From Escherichia coli (GTDB lineage Bacteria; Pseudomonadota; Gammaproteobacteria; Enterobacterales; Enterobacteriaceae): a stretch of DNA of 64,000 bases. The first letter of the stretch is position 1. Each line of letters starts with the position of its first letter. Below the pieces are notes generated by a model. That model did not search any database, had not been told where the DNA came from, and saw nothing but the letters and a program-made list of their open reading frames with translations. The stretch lies in NCBI RefSeq assembly GCF_048403405.1, contig NZ_CP183129.1; one strand, 5' to 3'. The position numbers were made by a program, and so were the translations under genes. This document shows, in pieces, positions 4,457-55,840 of the stretch.

Positions 4457-5095
4457 ATGCCCGGGCGCTTTGAACTAAAACCAACCCTGGAGAAAGTCTG
4501 GCACGCGCCAGACAATTTTCGCTTCATGGACCCGCTGCCGCCGATGCATCGTCGGGGGATCATTATTGCCGCCATTGTATTGGTGGTCGGATTTCTGCTT
4601 CCATCTGATGATACGCCCAACGCGCCGGTGGTGACGCGTGAAGCGCAGTTAGATATTCAGTCGCAATCACAACCACCGACAGAAGAACAGCTGCGGGCGC
4701 AATTAGTCACGCCACAAAATGATCCTGATCAGGTGGCTCCGGTCGCTCCAGAACCAATACAGGAAGGCCAGCCAGAAGAGCAGCCGCAACCCCCCCAAAC
4801 GCAACCATTCCAGCCAGATAGCGGAATTGATAATCAATGGCGCTCTTACCGTGTCGAACCCGGTAAAACGATGGCACAGCTGTTCCGCGACCACGGGCTG
4901 CCCGCTACCGATGTCTATGCAATGGCGCAGGTAGAAGGCGCGGGTAAGCCGCTGAGTAATTTGCAAAACGGGCAGATGGTGAAAATCCGCCAGAACGCCA
5001 GCGGCGTGGTGACGGGCTTAACCATTGATACGGGGAATAATCAACAGGTCTTGTTTACCCGCCAGCCGGATGGCAGTTTTATTCGTGCGCGGTAG
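4457..5095 (+). CDS. ytfB: Cell-division-associated OapA/LysM-domain protein YtfB
   Basis: Track ORF starts 4421; ATG at 4457 is preceded by AGGAGGA (4446..4452); 212 aa with one TM helix, a Pro/Gln-rich linker and a C-terminal OapA-like domain. Confidence 0.85.
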
Positions 5096-5404
5096 ATGAA
5101 GGGTCAACCAAAAGCCAGCTAAGGATTGTCTCTTTGATGACCTTACGTCTGGCTTCCAGTGCCTGGGGGAAACCATACTGATATGATAAACCAGGCCAAG
5201 CGTATGCTGGTTGATCAAATAATATCCCCCAAGCGCAGCAATATTAATATACACCTGCAATGGGTCGATATCTGGCTTAAAAATATTGTGTTTCTTCCCT
5301 TCATCCAATAAGGATTCCATTAACTGCAAGTGCGCATGATTAATTTCTAAGAGACGCTGTGATTTTGCATAATGCACACCTTTACTTTGGTTTTCACTAT
5401 GCAC
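5018..5404 (-). pseudogene. ytfA: Decayed TetR-family regulator remnant (ytfA-like); only the C-terminal effector-domain-like part is encoded
   Basis: ORF 5018..5404, 128 aa; central segment resembles TetR C-terminal domains but no HTH N-terminus is encoded, and the frame runs 78 nt into the 3-prime end of ytfB. Confidence 0.45.
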
Positions 5405-7660: not shown

Positions 7661-8074
<414 letters not shown>

Positions 8075-8382
8075 TTATTCAGCCTCCTGTCTGGGTCAGC
8101 CGAATCCCGGGGAGGCAAGGAACGTGTTAAAGGTCGGCTGAAAAATGACGCGTTATAGTACTGACATACCCCGCTAAACTCAAGGCCAGCCGACAAATAA
8201 ATCTCATCTTTCACCAAATCGTACTAACACGCTGATTTGAAGTTCATCACACTTCATCATGGTGTTTTTTTGAACAACTGCATCAGAAATGGTCACCATC
8301 AACTTCTTTATCATTGATTAAAATTAAATCAGAAGATCATCACAGAGGAGAGCACACAAAGTCAGCCGTTGAGGAGGTATCT

Positions 8383-8658
8383 ATGTTCAGTCGTGTTTTA
8401 GCCCTTCTGGCTGTGCTTTTGCTAAGTGCAAATACATGGGCAGCCATTGAAATTAATAACCACCAGGCCAGAAATATGGACGATGTGCAAAGCTTAGGCG
8501 TGATTTATATCAACCATAACTTCGCCACTGAAAGTGAAGCACGTCAGGCATTAAATGAAGAGACAGATGCGCAGGGCGCAACGTACTACCATCCGATCCT
8601 GATACGGGAACCGGGAAGTAACGGCAATATGCACGCCAGCGCGGATATTTATCGCTAG
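8383..8658 (+). CDS. yjfY: Small secreted DUF1471 (YhcN-family) protein YjfY
   Basis: Track ORF starts 8314; ATG at 8383 is preceded by GAGGAGG; 91 aa with an N-terminal signal peptide (MFSRVLALLAVLLLSANTWA). Confidence 0.8.
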   Translation: MFSRVLALLAVLLLSANTWAAIEINNHQARNMDDVQSLGVIYINHNFATESEARQALNEETDAQGATYYHPILIREPGSNGNMHASADIYR

Positions 8659-8698
8659 CACCAGGTATAACCAACGAAACATTGCCATAGTTTGCTTT

Positions 8699-8723
8699 GC
8701 CCCCTTCGCAGGGGGCTTTTTTT
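8699..8723 (+). terminator. Intrinsic terminator downstream of yjfY
   Basis: GCCCCC-TTCGCA-GGGGGC hairpin followed by TTTTTTT at 8717..8723. Confidence 0.65.
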
Positions 8724-8786
8724 GAAAAACGGCTGCGGAATTAGACCAGTTATCTCCCGAAGAAGGAAATTTCCGCAGCGCGTGTT

Positions 8787-9473
8787 TTACTTCTGCCCGT
8801 AATAAGCGTTGGGACCGTGCTTACGCATGAAGTGTTTATTCATGAGGTAGCTGTCGATGTGATTCAATTGTGGGTTAATGCCGCGGGCAATCCACGCCAT
8901 TTTTGCCACTTCTTCCATCACCACCGCGTTATGCACCGCATCGTGAGCATCTTTCCCCCAGGCGAACGGCCCGTGCTGGTACACCACAATCCCCGGTGTA
9001 TGCAGAGGCTCGGCGTTGCCCAGCGTTTCGATAATCACTTTGCCGGTGTTCAGTTCGTACTCACCCTGCACCTCTTCTTCGCTTAATCCGCGCGTACACG
9101 GGATATCACCAAAGAAGTAGTCGGCGTGCGTAGTGCCTAACGCCGGGATCGCCAGCCCCGCCTGCGCCCATGCGGTAGCATGAGTGGAGTGGGTATGGAC
9201 AATGCCGCCAAGCGACGGATAACGACGGTAGAGTTCGAGATGCGTCGCGGTGTCGGAAGACGGGCGATATTCCCCTTCCACCACCTTGCCGCTCATATCA
9301 ACCACCACCATATCGGCCGCTTTCATGGTTTCGTAGGCAACGCCGCTGGGCTTGATCACCACCAGCCCGCGTTCGCGGTCAATGGCGCTGACGTTGCCCC
9401 AGGTAAAGGTCACCAGCCCGTAGCGCGGCAGATCCATGTTGGCTTCAAATACCTGCTGTTTTAGCTTTTGCAT
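8787..9473 (-). CDS. ulaF: L-ribulose-5-phosphate 4-epimerase UlaF
   Basis: Track ORF 8787..9521; ATG at 9473 (MQKLKQQVF...) gives 228 aa; class II aldolase/epimerase fold; start overlaps the ulaE stop in TAATG. Confidence 0.9.
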
Positions 9474-10327
9474 TATGCCGCCTCCACCATGCCCGCTTTC
9501 GCCATGCGCGCTTTCACCCAATCACGCGCTTTCGCCACTTCTGCCGCCGGGTCTTCCGCCGTTTCGCTCCACATCTCAATCAGGTACGGCCCGCAATAGC
9601 CACTCTGTTTGAGCGTTTCGAAGCAACGTTCGAAATCCACCACACCTTCGCCAAACGGCACGTTTTTGAAGACGCCTGGTTTGGTGTCTTTCACATGCAC
9701 CGCGACGATATGCCCAATTCCGGCCTGCAATTCCATCTGCACGTCGTTGTCCCACGCCGACAGGTTGCCGATATCCGGGTAGAGCTGGAACCACGGGTTG
9801 TTGAGATAGTGCGCGTAACCCAACGCCTTACTGATGGAGTTCATCAACGGGTAATCCATGATCTCCATCGCCAGCGTCACCTGCGCGCGGCTTGCCATCT
9901 CAACGCTCTCTTTCAGGCCGTCACGGAAACGACGACGCGTTTCGTTATTGGCTTCCTGATAGTAAACGTCATAGCCCGCCAGTTGGATTACGCGAATGCC
10001 AACGTCCTGGGCGAACTGGATAGCTTTACGCATAATCTCCAGCCCCTGCGCCCGTACCGCGTCATCTTCGCTGCCCAGCGGGAAACGACGATGAGCAGAA
10101 AGGCACATGGACGGTACGCGCACGCCGGTTTCAACAATCGCATTCACCAGCGCCAGACGCTGCTCGCGGCTCCAGTCGAGGCGCGACAGGCGATCGTCTG
10201 TTTCATCTACCGACATCTCGACAAAATCGAAGCCTAACGTTTTTGCCAGTTGCAGCCGTTCCAGCCAGCACTCCCCGGCGGGAAGCGCTTTTTCATAGAT
10301 GCCAAGCGGGATTTGTTTGGACAACAT
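9473..10327 (-). CDS. ulaE: L-xylulose-5-phosphate 3-epimerase UlaE
   Basis: ORF 9473..10327, 284 aa, TIM-barrel sugar epimerase; recognised as UlaE. Confidence 0.9.
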
Positions 10328-10336
10328 ATCCGCTCC

Positions 10337-10987
10337 TTAGCCCCACAGTTCGGCAATGGAACGTTTGAACTGACGCGCAGCTTCAACCGGAGAAGCGGCA
10401 TCACGGATACTGCGACCAGCGATAAACACATGAATCGGAATGCCTTTGAACAGCGGCAGATCTTCCAGCGCCAGGCCACCGGTGACGGTCACTTTAAAGC
10501 CCATATCGGACAGACGTTTGATCGCGGTAATGTCAGCTTCGCCCCACGCCACGCCTGCGGCCTGCGCGTCACGGCTGCGGTGATAAACCACCTGCTGAAT
10601 ACCTGCGTCGCGCCACTGTTGCGCCTGTTCCCAGGTCCAGTAACCGGTCAGTTCGATCTGCACGTCGCCGTTAAACTCTTTTGCCACGTCCAGCGCACCT
10701 TTGGCGGTGTTGATATCCGCACAGCAAATCACGGTCACCCAGTCAGCGTTGGCTTCAAAGCACATACGAGAAAGGATTTTGCCCGCATCGGCAATTTTGG
10801 CGTCTGCCAGCACGATTTTGTGCGGGTAAAGCGCTTTCAGATCGCGAACCGCACGCACGCCTTCGCCCACGCACAGAATGGTACCCACTTCGATAATGTC
10901 GACTTCTTCGGCAATCAGGCGAGTGGTTTCATAGGCGCTATCCATAGTCTGGTTGTCCAGCGCGACCTGCAACATCGGTAATGACAT
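10337..10987 (-). CDS. ulaD: 3-keto-L-gulonate-6-phosphate decarboxylase UlaD
   Basis: Track ORF to 11026; ATG at 10987 gives [11 protein letters not shown]..., 216 aa, OMP-decarboxylase-like fold. Confidence 0.9.
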
Positions 10988-11000
10988 GTTCAATTCCTTC

Positions 11001-11465
11001 TTAAGCTGCCGCGTTGGTGCGGTCAATTAAATCCAGTACTTCCTGCTCGGTACGGCAGGCACGTAAACGGTCGAAATTCTCTTCATCTTCAAACAGATTG
11101 ACGATCTGCATGATGCCCACTTCCTGGTGAGTGTTGGCATCGACCGCCGCCATGGTGATGAGGATATCCACCGGATCGTTATCTTCGTGGTTGAACTCCA
11201 GCGGCTTTTTCAGCGTCACTAGCGCAAAACCGGTTTTCTTAACGCCCTCTTCCGGGCGACCGTGCGGCATTGCCAGGCCTGGTGCGAGCACAAAGTACGG
11301 ACCGTGCTGTTCAACCGCATCCAGAATCGCCTGGTAGTAACGCGGCTCGACAACATCCGCCGCTACCAGCAGGTCAACGCCGATTTTTACTGCGTCCTGC
11401 CATGTCTCAGCTTCAGCCTGCAGGCGGATGGATTTATTTTCCGCCAGCGAATCACGTAATTTCAT
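11001..11465 (-). CDS. ulaC: Ascorbate-specific PTS enzyme IIA UlaC
   Basis: ORF 11001..11465, 154 aa; recognised as UlaC. Confidence 0.9.
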
Positions 11466-11474
11466 GGCGCGTCC

Positions 11475-11780
11475 TTACTTCACATCCTGCGGGAAATGCG
11501 CTTTGATCACTTCCAGCAGTTTCGGGCCAAAGTCAGCAGGAGAGAGCATGTTGCGCACGCCAACCACGTATTTGTTGCCGGTCACGGTGATTTCGCCCGC
11601 AATGTGCGTAGAAGCGATGATGATATCCGCGCCGCTCAACTCGCTTTTGTATTCGCCAACCGCGCAGCTGTTTACCGTGTGGTCAATGTTTGATTGGGTT
11701 AAAAACTGGTCCACTTTCATCTTCATGATCATGGAACTGCCTTGTCCGTTGCCACACACAGCCAGAATACGTACGGTCAT
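11475..11780 (-). CDS. ulaB: Ascorbate-specific PTS enzyme IIB UlaB
   Basis: ATG at 11780 gives [16 protein letters not shown]..., 101 aa, with the active Cys in the CGNG motif. Confidence 0.9.
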
Positions 11781-11795
11781 AATCAAAACTCCTTA

Positions 11796-13547
<1,752 letters not shown>

Positions 13548-14612
13548 ATGAGTAAAGTGAAAAGTATCACCCGTGAATCCTGGATCCTGAGCACTTTCCC
13601 GGAGTGGGGTAGCTGGCTGAATGAAGAAATTGAACAAGAGCAGGTCGCCCCTGGCACATTTGCGATGTGGTGGCTAGGCTGCACCGGGATCTGGCTGAAA
13701 TCAGAAGGTGGCACCAACGTTTGCGTTGATTTCTGGTGCGGCACTGGCAAACAAAGTCACGGTAACCCGTTAATGAAACAGGGTCACCAGATGCAGCGCA
13801 TGGCTGGCGTGAAAAAACTGCAGCCAAACCTGCGCACCACCCCGTTTGTTCTTGATCCGTTTGCGATTCGCCAGATCGACGCGGTACTGGCGACTCACGA
13901 TCACAACGATCATATCGACGTTAACGTCGCTGCTGCCGTGATGCAGAACTGTGCTGATGACGTACCGTTCATTGGACCGAAAACCTGCGTTGATTTGTGG
14001 ATTGGCTGGGGCGTACCGAAAGAGCGTTGCATCGTGGTCAAACCGGGCGATGTTGTAAAAGTGAAAGACATTGAAATTCATGCGCTTGACGCTTTCGACC
14101 GTACTGCACTGATCACCCTGCCTGCCGATCAAAAAGCGGCTGGCGTACTGCCAGATGGCATGGACGATCGCGCAGTAAACTACCTGTTCAAAACCCCTGG
14201 CGGTTCCCTGTATCACAGTGGCGATTCCCACTACTCTAACTATTATGCGAAGCACGGTAACGAACATCAGATCGATGTGGCGTTAGGATCGTACGGTGAG
14301 AACCCGCGCGGTATTACCGACAAAATGACCAGCGCCGATATGCTGCGTATGGGTGAAGCCCTGAATGCGAAAGTGGTTATCCCGTTCCACCACGACATCT
14401 GGTCAAACTTTCAGGCCGATCCGCAAGAAATCCGCGTGCTGTGGGAGATGAAAAAAGATCGTCTGAAGTATGGCTTCAAGCCGTTTATCTGGCAGGTGGG
14501 CGGCAAATTTACCTGGCCGTTGGATAAAGACAACTTCGAGTACCACTATCCGCGTGGTTTCGATGATTGCTTCACTATTGAACCGGATCTGCCGTTCAAG
14601 TCATTCCTGTAA
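13548..14612 (+). CDS. ulaG: L-ascorbate-6-phosphate lactonase UlaG (metallo-beta-lactamase fold)
   Basis: ATG at 13548 gives [10 protein letters not shown]..., 354 aa; HDHNDH metal-binding motif present. Confidence 0.9.
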
Positions 14613-14625
14613 TCTGTCGTTTATA

Positions 14626-14657
14626 CCGGATAGCGTGGAGTAGTTCGCGCTATCCGG
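14626..14657 (+). terminator. REP-like hairpin downstream of ulaG (CCGGATAGCG ... CGCTATCCGG)
   Basis: 10-bp inverted repeat with a 12-nt loop, 14 nt after the ulaG stop; only a weak T-tract follows. Confidence 0.4.
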
Positions 14658-14719
14658 CGTAGTATTTCCTGGCTATTTCAAATATCATCTAAAAAAATCA
14701 AATTTTATCGGAATAGCTC

Positions 14720-15475
14720 ATGACTGAAGCACAAAGACATCAAATCCTCCTGGAAATGCTCGCACAATTGGGCTTTGTGACCGTTGAGAAAGTCGTTGAG
14801 CGTCTGGGAATTTCGCCTGCCACTGCGCGACGCGATATCAATAAACTTGACGAAAGCGGCAAACTGAAAAAAGTGCGCAATGGCGCAGAAGCTATTACCC
14901 AGCAGCGCCCACGCTGGACGCCGATGAATCTGCATCAGGCGCAGAATCACGATGAAAAAGTACGTATTGCTAAAGCGGCCTCGCAGCTGGTTAATCCGGG
15001 CGAAAGCGTAGTCATCAACTGCGGCTCCACCGCGTTTCTGCTTGGGCGGGAAATGTGTGGCAAGCCTGTGCAAATCATCACTAATTATCTACCGCTGGCA
15101 AATTACCTGATCGATCAGGAGCATGACAGCGTGATCATTATGGGCGGACAATACAACAAAAGTCAGTCCATCACTTTAAGCCCGCAAGGCAGCGAAAACA
15201 GTCTCTATGCCGGGCACTGGATGTTTACCAGCGGCAAAGGGCTGACAGCAGAAGGGTTGTATAAAACCGATATGCTGACGGCAATGGCAGAGCAGAAGAT
15301 GCTAAGCGTGGTAGGGAAACTGGTGGTACTGGTTGATAGCAGTAAGATTGGCGAACGCGCGGGAATGCTTTTTAGCCGTGCCGATCAAATCGATATGCTG
15401 ATCACCGGCAAAAATGCTAACCCGGAAATCCTGCAACAACTGGAAGCGCAAGGGGTCAGCATTCTGCGTGTTTAA
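14720..15475 (+). CDS. ulaR: DeoR-family HTH repressor of the ula operon, UlaR
   Basis: ORF 14720..15475, 251 aa; N-terminal HTH and DeoR C-terminal sugar-phosphate-binding domain. Confidence 0.9.
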
Positions 15476-16221
15476 AGATGCTGCCGGAAAAATGTCACGG
15501 CAGCATCTAACGCCTCAGGCGTAATGCGGTGACGCACGCCTGGCTGCCATGAACAGGTTAGCAGTTTATCCCGTCCCGTCTCGCTTAAGGCCTGCTGCAA
15601 ACGTAGTGATTCGTCGGCAGGCACGACGTCATCGTCAAGGCCATGCCACAGCAGTAGAGGTCTGTCACCAAGTTGTTCCAGGTGGTTTGTCGCTTCCCAC
15701 TCTGCCAGCGGCGCGACAATGTTATTGAATTCATTCTGCTGTGCTGCCGTTTCAGGTATCAGCGGTGGAAACAGTGAACGGGCGAGCGATGTAAAATAGC
15801 CCGATCCCATCATGCTGGCGGTACATTTCACCGTGGGGTGGCGAGCGGTAATTCCCAGTGCCGTCATCGCGCCCATCGACGCGCCACCGACTGCCAGACG
15901 GTCAGCAAGCAGCCAGTTTTCTTCGGCTATTGCCGCACGTAACGTAGTGAATTCCTGCATGCTTTGTAGCAAAATTTGCCAAAATTGATTTAACCGCCGC
16001 GCTGCGTCGCCCCTAAAACGGCTACCGTGATCGGGCGCATCCGGCATGATCACTCGCAAACCAGCCTGCGCCAGCGCAACGGCAAAATAGCTATACACCA
16101 GACTGGACGAAGTAAAGCCGTGATAAAAAATCGCGCACGGTAACGGGGTATCTTTTTGCCCGGCAGGATAAGCATGAAGAACGGGAATATCTGCCAGCTC
16201 GCGTGATTCTATTTCAATCAT
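15472..16221 (-). CDS. yjfP: Alpha/beta-hydrolase esterase YjfP
   Basis: ORF 15472..16221, 249 aa; GASMG serine-hydrolase motif; stop codon overlaps the ulaR stop on the opposite strand (TTAA). Confidence 0.85.
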
Positions 16222-16402
16222 CTGTCTCTCCTTTTTGTCTGGTATGACATGAAGAAATCCTTAGCACAAGTTTCTGCTGGCGGTATTAGTTCATAATGTT
16301 GAGATGTGGGTTACGCTTTCGTCACGTTTTCATTCGAAAATCGCGTACCAGGTAACAATTCGGGAACATTCCCCCAAAGTTAAATTAATAAGGCACTACA
16401 CT

Positions 16403-16732
16403 ATGGTTAGCAGGAAACGTAATAGCGTTATTTACCGGTTTGCCAGTTTATTATTGGTGTTGATGTTAAGTGCCTGTAGCGCACTGCAAGGTACGCCACA
16501 GCCAGCACCGCCAGTAACGGACCATCCGCAAGAGATTCGCCGCGACCAGACGCAAGGGTTACAGCGAATAGGTAGCGTAAGCACGATGGTTCGGGGTTCT
16601 CCGGATGACGCATTAGCAGAAATCAGAGCGAAAGCTGTCGCTGCAAAAGTTGATTATTACGTTGTCGTCATGGTGGACGAAACCATCGTGACAGGACAGT
16701 GGTATTCACAAGCCATTTTGTACCGTAAATAA
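16403..16732 (+). CDS. bsmA: DUF1471 lipoprotein BsmA (YjfO)
   Basis: Track ORF from 16304; ATG at 16403 gives MVSRKRNSVIYRFASLLLVLMLSAC... with a lipobox; 109 aa. Confidence 0.8.
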   Translation: MVSRKRNSVIYRFASLLLVLMLSACSALQGTPQPAPPVTDHPQEIRRDQTQGLQRIGSVSTMVRGSPDDALAEIRAKAVAAKVDYYVVVMVDETIVTGQWYSQAILYRK

Positions 16733-16880
16733 ATCAGACAACTTACATAGTCAGCTTTACATTGCTTTGCGTCCCTATGCGTTTACCTGTGCACAATAAA
16801 TTACCGGCTGGAAGCTCGGGCGTTTATTACCGCGATGGAATGCCCTGCAACATGTGGGGAAACGAAAAATGGAGCTGACG

Positions 16881-17156
16881 ATGAAACAATTACTTGCCTC
16901 ACCCTCGCTGCAATTAGTGACTTATCCTGCGAGCGCCACGGCACAGTCTGCAGAATTCGCCAGTGCTGACTGCGTGACAGGCCTGAATGAAATAGGTCAG
17001 ATCTCAGTTAGCAATATTTCAGGGGATCCGCAGGACGTGGAACGTATCGTGGCGTTAAAGGCCGATGAACAAGGTGCGTCATGGTACCGCATTATTACCA
17101 TGTACGAAGACCAGCAGCCTGATAACTGGCGCGTACAGGCGATACTGTATGCATGA
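16881..17156 (+). CDS. yjfN: DUF1471 small periplasmic protein YjfN
   Basis: ATG at 16881 gives MKQLLASPSLQL..., 91 aa; paralogous to BsmA and YjfY. Confidence 0.8.
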   Translation: MKQLLASPSLQLVTYPASATAQSAEFASADCVTGLNEIGQISVSNISGDPQDVERIVALKADEQGASWYRIITMYEDQQPDNWRVQAILYA

Positions 17157-17181
17157 GTATCATCTACAGCAAATGAACAAT

Positions 17182-17215
17182 GCCGGATGCGGCGCGAGCG
17201 CCTTGTCCGGCCTAT
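17182..17215. repeat. REP (repetitive extragenic palindromic) element between convergent yjfN and aidB
   Basis: GCCGGATGCGGCGCGAGCGCCTTGTCCGGCCTAT closely matches the enterobacterial REP consensus. Confidence 0.65.
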
Positions 17216-17272
17216 AATTTTCACATATTTCATTGAGTTAATTGAAACCAGCGTTGCATCAGTCGTATACGC

Positions 17273-18898
17273 TTACACACACACTCCCCCCGTCGCCCGC
17301 AGCAATAAATCATTCTGGATCTGCTCTGACAACCGTACGCCGCCGCGCGTATCTAACATCACCTGACACCACGCCTGCGCCATTGGCGGAGAGGCATATT
17401 TCAACATTTGCGCACCGCAGCCCAGCAGGAATAGCTGATGAGTAATCTCTCGCCCCAGTTCTTCAGCAGGCTTACGCAGCTGCTGCTGTAAACGACGTAC
17501 CGCGCGATCAAAATAGCGATCCTGCCCTTTCACTTCCACAAATGCTTCCGACAATAAGTCGTATACACCCGCTTGCTTATTGAGCACGCGCAGTACATCC
17601 AGGCACATAATATTACCGGAACCTTCCCAAATACTGTTTACCGGTATCTCCCGGTAAAGCCGCGGCAGCTCGCTCTCCTCGCAATAACCAATGCCGCCCA
17701 GCACCTCCATCGCTTCGGCCACAAACGGCATACCTCGTTTGCAGATCACAAATTTCGCCGCAGGCGTAAATAAACGCGCCCACAGAGCTTCTTTGGCATC
17801 GGCACGCCGGTCCCACGCTCGCGCAAGACGAAACAGCAACGCCGTTTGCCCTTCAAGCTGAAGTGCCATGCGACTTAAGACATGACGCATAAGGGGCTGT
17901 TGGATCAATGGATTACCAAAAACATGGCGTTGATGTGCATGATAAATCGCTAGCGAAAATGCACGGCGCATCATGGCATGGCTACCCAGGGCGCAATCAA
18001 AACGCGTCATCCCACCCATTTTCAGGATCAGACGAATTCCTTCCCCTTCCTGCCCCAACAACCAGCCAATGGCATCCTGAAACTCCACTTCGCAGCTGGC
18101 GTTAGAGCGATTACCCAGCTTATCTTTCAGCCGCTCGAGGCGAATCGCGTTGCGTTGCCCGTCAGGCAAAAAGCGCGGCACAAAAAAGCAGGACAAACCG
18201 CCCGTAGTCTGCGCCAGCACCAGATGCGCATCGCTTTGCGGCACCGAGAAAAACCATTTATGCCCCACCAGCCGATAAGAGCCATCTTCCAGGCGCTCTG
18301 CGCGGGTGGTGTTGCTCATGACATCGGAACCGCCCTGCTTTTCCGTCATTCCCATGCCAATCAACAAACCGCGTTTTTGCCCACCTGGCAATAAGTGAGA
18401 ATCGTAGCGATCGCTCAACAGCGGCGTGGTCCAGTCCTGAAACGGCGCGGGTAACATCTGTAACAGCAATGGCATGGCGGCAAAGGTCATCGTTATCGGA
18501 CATAACGACCCTGCCTCAACCTGTGCGTGCAACATAAAACGCGCCGCGCGCGCCACAAATGCGCCGGAGCGAGCGTCTTCTTCCCAGGCAAGATTGTGCA
18601 CCCGATTGGTACATAGCGCCTGCATCAGCAGGTGCCAGGCGGGGTGAAAACGCACATCGTCCAGACGCCGCCCCTGGGCATCGTAGCGCAATAATTCAGG
18701 CGGATTCACATTCGCCAGCCGCCCCAGTTCAAGGGATTCAGCCGTCCCTAACTGCTGACCAATACTGGCTAGAAAATCGCTATCCCAGCCAGCACCTTCA
18801 CGCGTTACCGCTTCGCAGAGCGCGCCATCAGACAGGTATAAGTTGCTGTTATTTAATGGCATAGGTTGATTAAAAACGGTGTGAGTTTGCCAGTGCAC
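17273..18898 (-). CDS. aidB: Acyl-CoA dehydrogenase-family adaptive-response protein AidB
   Basis: ORF 17273..18916; conventional GTG start at 18898 gives MVHWQTHTVF..., 541 aa; in-frame ATG at 18913 is an alternative. Confidence 0.9.
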   Translation of the reverse strand: MHWQTHTVFNQPMPLNNSNLYLSDGALCEAVTREGAGWDSDFLASIGQQLGTAESLELGRLANVNPPELLRYDAQGRRLDDVRFHPAWHLLMQALCTNRVHNLAWEEDARSGAFVARAARFMLHAQVEAGSLCPITMTFAAMPLLLQMLPAPFQDWTTPLLSDRYDSHLLPGGQKRGLLIGMGMTEKQGGSDVMSNTTRAERLEDGSYRLVGHKWFFSVPQSDAHLVLAQTTGGLSCFFVPRFLPDGQRNAIRLERLKDKLGNRSNASCEVEFQDAIGWLLGQEGEGIRLILKMGGMTRFDCALGSHAMMRRAFSLAIYHAHQRHVFGNPLIQQPLMRHVLSRMALQLEGQTALLFRLARAWDRRADAKEALWARLFTPAAKFVICKRGMPFVAEAMEVLGGIGYCEESELPRLYREIPVNSIWEGSGNIMCLDVLRVLNKQAGVYDLLSEAFVEVKGQDRYFDRAVRRLQQQLRKPAEELGREITHQLFLLGCGAQMLKYASPPMAQAWCQVMLDTRGGVRLSEQIQNDLLLRATGGVCV

Positions 18899-18981
18899 TG
18901 TGTCTCCCTCCATCAATGGCAGTCACCATTAGTATGGTCACTGCCATGGATTCATGACAGAAAGAGATTGCTAAAACATTC

Positions 18982-20145
18982 TTATCCAGCAATGTAATGC
19001 GGAACGAAACGTGAGGTGTCTTTGGTGATCAGCGTGTTATCTTCACGGATCCCCATTCCGCACGCTTCATCATCGACAATCCAGCTACCGATGAGTGTGT
19101 AGCTATCGCCAAATCGCGGCAGAGGTTGAAACGCCTGGTAGATCATCGGTTCATCGGCGTAATCACCATCAGCGTGGTCAACGACGTTATTCTGACCGTC
19201 GAAAATGGTGACGTTTCCGCCTTCGCGTGAGTAGATCGGTTTACGCACATAGCTTTCGCCAGCGGCAATCTGCGGTTTTTCGCCCTCAAACCAGGATGCA
19301 AGAAGGTTAGGATGACCAGGAAAGAAGCGCCAAAGCAGCGGCATTAACCCTTTGTTGCTCAAGATACTTTTCCATAACGGCTCCACCCATTGCTCGCGGC
19401 GCTTGCGCAGCAGCGGACCGTTATCGTCACGCATCATCCACTCCAGCGGATACAGCTTAAATGCACGCTGGATGACATTATCATCAAGATCGGTCAGTAC
19501 GCCGCCGACGCCCAAACCGAGATCTTCAATGTAGATAAACCGCGACTCCTGCCCTGCCTGCTGGGCGCAGTCCTGCAAGTACAGCACGGTACTCCTGTCT
19601 TCATCGGTGTCCTGACAGCAGCAAAAATAAAACGGTTCCCGACTGTAAAGCTCGCTAAAGCGCGAAATCAGGCGTTCCTGAATGGCATTGTACTGATCGG
19701 CATCACGCGGAATAATGCCGCTGCGCCGGGCATCCTCCAGCCACAGCCACTGGAAATAAGCCGATTCATACAACGAGGTTGGCGTATCGGCGTTGTACTC
19801 CAGCAGCTTCACCGGCGCATTGCCACACCAGGCAAAATCCATCCGGCCATAGAGCGAAGGATCGCGTGCGCGCCAGCTTTCGGCGATCACATCCCAGTAC
19901 AACGGCGGGATCGCCAGTTGCGTCAGGATCTCTTCGTCTTTAACCGCGCAATCCACCACCTCAAGGCACATCTGATGCAGTTCCGCAGTTGGTTTTTCGA
20001 TCTGCTCTTCAATCTGACGCAGGGTAAAGCGGTAAGCCCGACTCTCATCCCAATAGATTTCATTGTCGATGATATGAAAGTCGAAACCGTTGTCAGCGGC
20101 GATCTGGTCCAGATCCCGCCGCACAGGAACGTTGTGTCTCAGCAT
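18982..20145 (-). CDS. yjfC: ATP-grasp ligase of the glutathionylspermidine-synthetase-like family, YjfC
   Basis: Track ORF to 20160; ATG at 20145 gives MLRHNVPVRRD..., 387 aa; last gene of the yjfI-C cassette. Confidence 0.85.
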   Translation of the reverse strand: MLRHNVPVRRDLDQIAADNGFDFHIIDNEIYWDESRAYRFTLRQIEEQIEKPTAELHQMCLEVVDCAVKDEEILTQLAIPPLYWDVIAESWRARDPSLYGRMDFAWCGNAPVKLLEYNADTPTSLYESAYFQWLWLEDARRSGIIPRDADQYNAIQERLISRFSELYSREPFYFCCCQDTDEDRSTVLYLQDCAQQAGQESRFIYIEDLGLGVGGVLTDLDDNVIQRAFKLYPLEWMMRDDNGPLLRKRREQWVEPLWKSILSNKGLMPLLWRFFPGHPNLLASWFEGEKPQIAAGESYVRKPIYSREGGNVTIFDGQNNVVDHADGDYADEPMIYQAFQPLPRFGDSYTLIGSWIVDDEACGMGIREDNTLITKDTSRFVPHYIAG

Positions 20146-40426: not shown

Positions 40427-40502
<76 letters not shown>

Positions 40503-40537
40503 TTGGGTGGTCTGTGCTTTACAGCACTTTCAAATTT

Positions 40538-40613
<76 letters not shown>

Positions 40614-40770
40614 TTAATCTTCGTCTTTCGAACCGCTACTGCCTTGGCTGCCTTCACTCACCTTAGTCACTTACTTTTGTAAGCTCCCAAGGATTCGTTC
40701 AGTTGCCGCCTTGTCGCAATTCGAAATACTGCGATTGGGTGGTCTGTGCTTTGCAGCACTTTTCAAATTT

Positions 40771-40846
<76 letters not shown>

Positions 40847-55776: not shown

Positions 55777-55794
55777 ATCAGGCTCCGGAGAATT

Positions 55795-55840
55795 GGGGCC
55801 GTCCCCGGTGAAAAGAGGCGTTTGCAGGTCGTCCTGCAAA
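55795..55840 (-). ncRNA. Guanidine-II (mini-ykkC) riboswitch in the sugE leader: two hairpins with ACGR loops
   Basis: Minus-strand RNA reads UUUGCAGG-ACGA-CCUGCAAA, then a 14-nt linker, then GGGG-ACGG-CCCC, ending about 18 nt before the GGAG Shine-Dalgarno and AUG of sugE. Confidence 0.65.

Follow-up and report, generated by a model that had tools for sequence, protein, structure and literature searches.

Three DUF1471 genes, yjfY, bsmA and yjfN, in an old neighbourhood of the Escherichia coli chromosome with a removable ula cassette

Gene content and layout of the locus

We analysed a 64-kb stretch of the E. coli chromosome (contig NZ_CP183129.1, hereafter the window), in which three genes of the DUF1471 family, yjfY, bsmA (yjfO) and yjfN, all lie within 9 kb. 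A preliminary description had presented them as paralogues that bracket the ula genes for ascorbate utilization, and had suggested that they arose by repeated local duplication and that they may have specialized stress or biofilm roles tied to this neighbourhood. Gene coordinates (Table 1) are those of the RefSeq annotation transferred from E. coli strain 4621, to which window positions 8000–17500 are 100% identical; the gene ends given in the preliminary description match this annotation exactly. Of 5426 complete E. coli genomes, 5425 contain the stretch, and 5347 have at least 80% of it as a single piece.

The gene order is rplI-rpsR-priB-rpsF (−), yjfY (+), ulaFEDCBA (−), ulaG (+), ulaR (+), yjfP (−), bsmA (+), yjfN (+) and aidB (−), and the K-12 layout is the same. 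The bracketing of ula is physically real, but the interval from yjfY to bsmA also includes the esterase gene yjfP, which, unlike ula, proved to be the constant neighbour.

A scan for consensus sigma-70 promoters gave no match upstream of yjfY, bsmA or yjfN, a null result that is uninformative because the bsmA promoter is reported to be of the sigma-S type. In an Rfam scan the intergenic regions of the three genes held no RNA family, the sole match there being the RpsF leader (RF02893, 110 bits) beside yjfY, at 8054–8138 (−) in the divergent rpsF–yjfY region and immediately upstream of rpsF. At the other end of the locus, the convergent yjfN–aidB spacer (17157–17272) contains a palindrome resembling a repetitive extragenic palindromic (REP) element, GCCGGATGCGGCG...CGCCTTGTCCGGCC, which was spotted by eye.

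Table 1. Features of the yjfY–yjfN region; positions refer to the 64-kb window.
Feature	Position	Strand	Description	Evidence
yjfY	8383–8658	+	91-aa DUF1471 protein	RefSeq annotation; PF07338, 67.1 bits
yjfY intrinsic terminator	8699–8725	+	GCCCCC-loop-GGGGGC followed by T7	Terminator scan
ula cassette	8787–15475	mixed	Single block between yjfY and yjfP, present or absent together	
ulaF	8787–9473	−		Annotation
ulaE	9473–10327	−		Annotation
ulaD	10337–10987	−		Annotation
ulaC	11001–11465	−		Annotation
ulaB	11475–11780	−		Annotation
ulaA	11796–13193	−		Annotation
ulaG	13548–14612	+		Annotation
ulaR	14720–15475	+		Annotation
yjfP	15472–16221	−	249-aa alpha/beta-hydrolase esterase, divergent from bsmA	Annotation; Pfam Hydrolase_4 and Peptidase_S9
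yjfP–bsmA divergent intergenic region	16222–16402		Sigma-S bsmA promoter	Reported in the literature
bsmA (yjfO)	16403–16732	+	109-aa DUF1471 lipoprotein precursor	Annotation; PF07338, 50.7 bits
bsmA–yjfN spacer	16733–16880	+	148 bp; no terminator predicted	Sequence and scan
yjfN	16881–17156	+	91-aa DUF1471 periplasmic protein	Annotated 'protease activator YjfN'; PF07338, 63.2 bits

Family membership and fold

YjfY, BsmA and YjfN share the signature of one family, as the preliminary description had it: each scores well above the 27-bit gathering score of PF07338 (YdgH_BhsA-like, formerly DUF1471), and the window BsmA reaches 150.9 bits against the NCBIfam BsmA equivalog (cut-off 100). A six-frame hidden Markov model scan of the whole window returned these three genes only, with no fourth DUF1471 open reading frame. 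At family level the three do not differ from other members of DUF1471 (the YhcN or BhsA-McbA family). They are alike in size (about 90–110 aa, the range anticipated by the preliminary description), in carrying an export signal, in consisting of a single alpha+beta domain and in ending with the motif A-x-x-Y, of which the A and the Y are invariant in 12 E. coli DUF1471 domains. In the fuller form of this motif, A-x-x-Y-[KR], YjfY ends IYR and BsmA LYRK; YjfN keeps A-x-x-Y, but a final A replaces the K or R. The family is small (585 clusters at 50% identity among 1.84e9 representatives) and restricted to the Enterobacterales. Eletsky et al. (2014; PMC4092069) gave YjfY, YjfO and YjfN a subfamily each among about 12 in DUF1471 and held that the family grew by duplication, giving the adjacency of yjfN and yjfO as evidence.

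The AlphaFold2 model of YjfN (mean predicted local distance difference test score 79.8; 88–91 across residues 31–90) has a strand–helix–strand–strand topology (E-H-E-E). Its top matches in the PDB by Foldseek were 2JNA, 2M2J, 2MA8 and 4EVU, the last with a template-modelling (TM) score of 0.86 and a root-mean-square deviation of 1.6 Å, and on this model YjfN is predicted to have the small alpha+beta fold of SrfN, YahO and the YdgH domains. The next-best structural match after DUF1471 is RcsF, the outer-membrane lipoprotein sensor (2Y1B, E 0.012, TM 0.51), which is a lipoprotein as BsmA is; the same similarity to RcsF has been described for RclB (PMC12096828). RcsF and YjfN are, however, 12% identical with no Pfam relationship, and the lipidated linker and disulfides of RcsF are absent. 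The likeness is one of resemblance, not of membership.

Clustering of DUF1471 genes in K-12

Ten DUF1471 genes are known in E. coli K-12 (PMC4092069, PMC12096828), and all ten were located in the K-12 record (rclB, yahO, ybiJ, mcbA, bhsA, ydgH, yhcN, yjfN, bsmA and yjfY), where they occupy seven places. The smallest span holding three of them is 8.5 kb (P = 0.0012), and three gaps between neighbours are 10 kb or less (P = 0.0005); both values come from 1e6 random placements of ten points, in a test that was post hoc and assumed uniform placement. It is unlikely that yjfY, bsmA and yjfN lie so close together by chance, and the K-12 members are clustered rather than evenly scattered.

Two further K-12 pairs are close, ybiJ–mcbA at 4.1 kb and rclB–yahO at 28 kb. 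Linked or fused paralogues occur elsewhere in the family as well: besides ybiJ and mcbA, there are the tandem of yhcN and a ycfR-like gene in Salmonella, the three-domain protein YdgH, and a tandem pair on an Enterobacterales contig (L096). Such cases fit the idea that the family expands through local duplication. The L096 pair is unrelated to the yjf genes; it lies at 4707–5367 of a 42%-GC contig, encodes proteins of 89 and 93 aa and stands beside an AraC-type regulator.

Conservation of the locus in the Enterobacteriaceae

To follow the locus through the Enterobacteriaceae, one genome of each species was scanned with a three-sequence YjfY alignment as anchor. The scan yielded 80 loci, 71 of them long enough to judge, with more than 15 genera among the complete loci; the genera include Escherichia, Citrobacter, Enterobacter, Klebsiella, Raoultella, Kluyvera, Lelliottia, Leclercia, Cedecea, Buttiauxella and Pluralibacter. 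The order and strands of yjfY (+), yjfP (−), bsmA (+) and yjfN (+) were identical in all 71. All eight ula genes lay between yjfY and yjfP in 54 loci, and none of them in the other 17, where the three DUF1471 genes span 1.9–2.1 kb (3.3 kb in two cases). Enterobacter, Citrobacter, Cedecea and Pluralibacter retain the terminator hairpin behind yjfY whether or not ula is there.

In 50 of the 54 ula-bearing loci ulaR and yjfP meet in an identical 4-bp overlap of their coding sequences, which points to one origin of ula at this site. Two of the loci that lack ula carry its debris: Enterobacter vonholyi (L045) retains 44 nt from the 3' end of ulaR, and Citrobacter sp. (L041) retains ulaR fragments; the cassette was therefore lost there by deletion, a secondary loss. 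Replacement occurs too. In Pseudocitrobacter faecalis (L044, 11015–16800), sliding-window DNA identity to Escherichia is 93–96% from ulaF to ulaG, 79–83% in ulaR and 60–67% in the flanking yjfY, yjfP and bsmA, a pattern that indicates an inter-genus recombinational replacement of most of the cassette. This locus, with Ula proteins 97–100% identical to those of E. coli and flanks at 59–76%, was also considered as a case of ula entering an empty slot, and that interpretation was rejected because the block of high identity stops before ulaR, so that the exchange took place inside a cassette already there.

A seemingly different gene order in Klebsiella pneumoniae ATCC 13883 (L068) was likewise discarded, since it is actually a deletion that fuses ulaB to yjfN. 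At about 14367–14600 a truncated ulaB is joined to the middle of yjfN (...DCVTGLNE), with no Ns at the junction; ulaA, ulaG, ulaR, yjfP, bsmA and the 5' end of yjfN are gone. Either a deletion peculiar to this strain or an assembly error could account for the junction.

The flanks of yjfY hold additional genes in several lineages. In Citrobacter (L017, 8939–9724 (−), and others) a gene for a 261-aa membrane protein of the TauE/SafE family lies between rpsF and yjfY, adding about 1.2 kb to the E. coli arrangement. Between yjfY and ulaF, P. faecalis L044 carries the gene of a 192-aa DUF1440 membrane protein (10324–10902 (−)), and E. whittamii (L008) has a gap of equal size. A segment of about 1.4 kb separates yjfY from the next gene in nine loci (L076, L021, L066, L068, L077, L082, L083, L086 and L013). 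In Klebsiella michiganensis L076 it encodes, at 10394–11587, a 397-aa transporter of the major facilitator superfamily (MFS_1, 1.7e-42); the other eight were matched to it by gap size alone. The MFS, DUF1440 and TauE/SafE insertions mark the yjfY flanks as a hot spot for inserted genes. Farther along, between bsmA and yjfN and right at the 3' end of bsmA, three loci (L008, at 18944–19284, L009 and L012), from E. whittamii, Escherichia sp. E1V33 and a single E. coli strain, carry one or two copies of a 190–270-bp element resembling enterobacterial repetitive intergenic consensus (ERIC) sequences or intergenic repeat units (IRU). The insertion, which duplicates TACCGTAAATAA, alters the last bsmA codons, so that in L008 the product ends LYSK.

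The locus outside the Enterobacteriaceae

Yersiniaceae contexts were obtained by exact-protein look-ups, with taxa assigned through the names of cluster members. Yersinia kristensenii has rpsF, a yjfY-like gene, yjfP, a bsmA-like gene and aidB in this order. A Serratia contig has yjfY-like, yjfP, bsmA-like and yjfN-like genes followed by a DUF350 gene and aidB. On an Edaphovirga-like and a Nissabacter-like contig the bsmA-like gene is followed by a yjfN-like one. None of these four contexts has ula at this site, and in Yersinia and Serratia, where the arrangement is compact, yjfP again stands between yjfY and bsmA. The unit yjfY-yjfP-bsmA(-yjfN) is thus older than the split between Enterobacteriaceae and Yersiniaceae. 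Given the single order of all 71 Enterobacteriaceae loci and the layout in Yersinia and Serratia, the arrangement of the three DUF1471 genes is inherited from one ancestral event and was not assembled repeatedly. The combination of yjfP, a bsmA-like gene and aidB without yjfN was seen in Yersinia and on a 59%-GC contig (L089, 825–1136; L091, 8001–8309), where yjfN may have been lost or may not yet have arisen.

These distributions bear directly on the proposed functional tie to ula, such as stress or biofilm roles linked to the ula genes. What speaks for the tie is the bracketing itself, which E. coli and 54 of 71 Enterobacteriaceae loci display and which is implied for Salmonella by the tags STM4378/4379 and STM4389 (PMC4092069). 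Co-inheritance of the three genes with ula was, however, not upheld: the 17 loci without any ula gene keep all three DUF1471 genes in order, and Yersinia and Serratia have the trio or two of the three without ula; ula has been deleted while the flanking genes stayed; and, as in L044, the ulaF–ulaG block can be replaced by recombination independently of its flanks. Moreover, yjfY, which is convergent with ulaF, ends in a terminator of its own, and the regulatory links reported are to sigma-S for bsmA and to Cpx for yjfN, not to UlaR. Roles tied to ula are therefore highly improbable, and we regard the bracketing as an accident of insertion.

The constancy of yjfP raises another explanation, that yjfY, yjfP, bsmA and yjfN are held together by selection, through co-inheritance or shared regulation with the esterase YjfP, and not by a history of duplication. 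YjfP would fit such a role by position, lying between yjfY and bsmA in every Enterobacteriaceae locus judged as well as in Yersinia, Serratia and the Edaphovirga-like contig, and the divergent control region of about 180 bp common to yjfP and bsmA bears a sigma-S chromatin immunoprecipitation (ChIP) peak. YjfP has no signal peptide, however, and as an alpha/beta-hydrolase is presumably cytoplasmic, unlike the exported DUF1471 proteins. Conservation is just as high for the outer neighbours rpsF and aidB, so that syntenic inertia explains the arrangement equally well, and the literature searched gave no evidence of co-expression or interaction. We consider selection around YjfP an unlikely explanation.

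Export signals, C-termini and regulation

Export signals were judged by inspecting alignments of 62–70 orthologues, and they bear out the earlier view of the products as secreted proteins or lipoproteins. The N-termini of YjfY and YjfN are hydrophobic and end A-x-A or A-Q-S, as in substrates of signal peptidase I. YjfY has a cleavable signal peptide (MFSRVLALLAVLLLSANTWA / AIE...) and ends ...DIYR; the signal and a Y-R/K/Q end are conserved in 70 orthologues. BsmA carries the lipobox L-S-A-C25 (consensus L-[ST]-[AGS]-C), whose Cys never varies among 67 orthologues and is kept by the relatives in Yersinia, Serratia and Nissabacter; the protein ends ...AILYRK. The window YjfN is identical to K-12 YjfN; its mature form starts at about AEFASADC and ends ...AILYA.

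It is the last residue that sets YjfN apart. A basic end is usual for the family, with R, K or Q in YjfY and K, R or Q (typically Y-R-K) in BsmA; the YjfN C-terminus is hydrophobic in all 71 orthologues, Y-A in 66 (A91 in the window) and Y-V in five. YjfN is described as a 'suicide activator' of the protease DegP (Kim et al. 2018, J Bacteriol 200:e00519-17, as cited in bioRxiv 10.1101/2024.12.25.630354 and PMC12096828). According to these citing accounts its hydrophobic C-terminus engages DegP and activates proteolysis, YjfN itself being degraded, and it lets DegP and DegQ break CsgA down in vitro. The window YjfN has the hydrophobic C-terminal Ala of such activators, unlike YjfY and BsmA, which end in Arg or Lys. 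In the Yersiniaceae the last residue of the YjfN-like proteins is Leu in Serratia and Arg on the Edaphovirga-like and Nissabacter-like contigs. To judge from these termini, the activator tail may be a later, lineage-specific acquisition.

An E-sigmaS ChIP-seq peak lies between bsmA and yjfP, with an open complex formed by E-sigmaS only (PMC4447067), and yjfN belongs to the CpxR iModulon (PMC7657598). With the terminator behind yjfY, the three genes look to be regulated separately.

These observations could be drawn together differently. The genes yjfY, yjfP, bsmA and yjfN might form a four-gene envelope module kept by function, in existence at least since Enterobacteriaceae and Yersiniaceae shared an ancestor. 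In it a bsmA-like lipoprotein gene would have duplicated, and the soluble product, YjfN, would have gained its hydrophobic end on the way to the Enterobacteriaceae and so become a DegP activator, the Arg-ended Yersiniaceae orthologues representing the state before activation. We hold this proposal to be speculative and rather doubtful.

Relatedness of the three proteins

Pairwise identity among YjfY, BsmA and YjfN is 20–29% over a 67-column core. YbiJ, McbA and BhsA, by comparison, are 40–50% identical and clearly recent relatives, whereas the yjf trio dates back at least to the separation of Enterobacteriaceae and Yersiniaceae. The three are related at the level of profiles; in pairwise alignment and phylogeny, the comparison that the preliminary description had called for, the signal is faint. 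The best paralogue of BsmA is YjfN (BLAST E 5e-8, hhalign score 86), and a C-terminal motif, W-x-x-Q-A-I-L-Y, is common to these two only. Their subfamilies are sisters in the neighbour-joining tree described below. Their genes stand in tandem on the same strand, with an end-to-end distance of 404–436 bp in nearly all loci and a conserved spacer of about 150 bp. On these grounds, tandem duplication is a reasonable but weakly supported origin for bsmA and yjfN.

The repeated duplication once envisaged for all three genes does not extend so readily to yjfY. Its product best matches YhcN (BLAST 2e-10, hhalign 66), YdgH domain I and SrfN, and its nearest solved structure is Salmonella SrfN (2JNA, E 7e-6). 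By BLAST it is marginally similar to BsmA (E 0.016), and no similarity to YjfN was detected. It is possible, if somewhat unlikely, that only bsmA and yjfN are local duplicates and that yjfY is a relocated YhcN/SrfN-like copy, near them by chance or because the site distal to rpsF is permissive. Such a relocation would agree with the best matches just given, with the scores of YjfY against BsmA and YjfN, which are among the lowest in the family, and with the hot spot for extra genes at the yjfY flanks (TauE in Citrobacter, MFS in Klebsiella and Raoultella, DUF1440 in Pseudocitrobacter and E. whittamii, and ula itself). With one pair fixed, however, a third of ten genes would be very unlikely to fall by chance within about 2 kb, the ancestral spacing (P of about 0.001 even at 8.5 kb). 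YhcN, moreover, tops the scores against almost every subfamily, behaving like a slowly evolving 'central' sequence and not like a specific sister. A longer last loop is also common to YjfY, BsmA, YjfN and the YdgH domains. The sequence favours neither origin for yjfY, which may have come from an older duplication on the spot or from relocation of a YhcN/SrfN-like copy.

Proposed history of the locus

From the layout, the junctions and the protein termini we infer the following history. The old, compact neighbourhood of rpsF, yjfY, yjfP, bsmA-yjfN and aidB was in place before Enterobacteriaceae and Yersiniaceae separated, with the DUF1471 genes encoding small, Sec-exported envelope proteins of one beta-alpha-beta-beta domain each. 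Ancient local duplication most likely built the cluster, bsmA and yjfN arising as a tandem pair. Within the Enterobacteriaceae, the 6.7-kb ula cassette would then have entered once between yjfY and yjfP, to be lost several times afterwards and swapped by recombination. After duplication the copies may have specialized. BsmA would have turned into a lipoprotein, transcribed from a sigma-S-type promoter. YjfN would be soluble in the periplasm, activating DegP through its hydrophobic C-terminal residue, being degraded in turn and grouping with the Cpx response. YjfY would be a soluble periplasmic protein too, with the usual basic C-terminus and its own terminator. Taken as a whole, we consider this account probable.

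Several results weigh against it. The best match of YjfN is YhcN, with BsmA second. A neighbour-joining tree was built from 168 domains of 150 representatives of the 585 clusters (E ≤ 0.001); it places the YjfN and BsmA subfamilies as sisters with a bootstrap of only 36%, gives a clade of YjfY, BsmA and YjfN 3%, and leaves the deep branching of the family without resolution, a weak signal that follows from a domain yielding just 67 aligned columns. Beyond position, nothing positive ties YjfY to the other two. The clustering probabilities carry the post hoc assumptions given above, and the polarity of the ula history, one gain followed by losses, rests on the four Yersiniaceae contexts and the identity of the junction. 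As to function, a six-fold DUF1471 deletion in Klebsiella had no phenotype (PMC11057644), and in E. coli no interaction was seen when a ydgH mutation was combined with one in yjfN or bsmA (PMC11705850).

Other features of the window

Two features lie far from the locus: three tRNA genes with equal Rfam scores within about 420 bp (40430–40846 (−)), and a guanidine-II (mini-ykkC) riboswitch at 55794–55840 (−).

Significance

Eletsky et al. (2014) had already published the genes, their family, the total of ten paralogues, the notion of expansion by duplication and the adjacency of yjfN and yjfO. The present analysis contributes three small points: yjfY, too, is part of the old neighbourhood, yjfP and not ula is the constant companion, and ula is an insertion lost several times. 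In the literature searched we found neither the ancient placement of yjfY nor the later insertion of ula stated. The grouping first noticed at this locus is real but ordinary, and its interpretation was partly right, in seeing old local paralogy, and partly wrong, in tying it to ula.

All three genes are named and annotated, two of them with reported roles, so the finding has little significance beyond housekeeping. It nevertheless offers a useful correction: ula being a removable insertion, no ascorbate-linked function is to be read from the bracketing. The invariant position of yjfP amid genes for exported DUF1471 proteins is a modest lead. The other is YjfN, whose conserved hydrophobic tail differs from the basic ones of its neighbours and of some orthologues in the Yersiniaceae, a contrast that amounts to a clean natural experiment on the evolution of a DegP activator.

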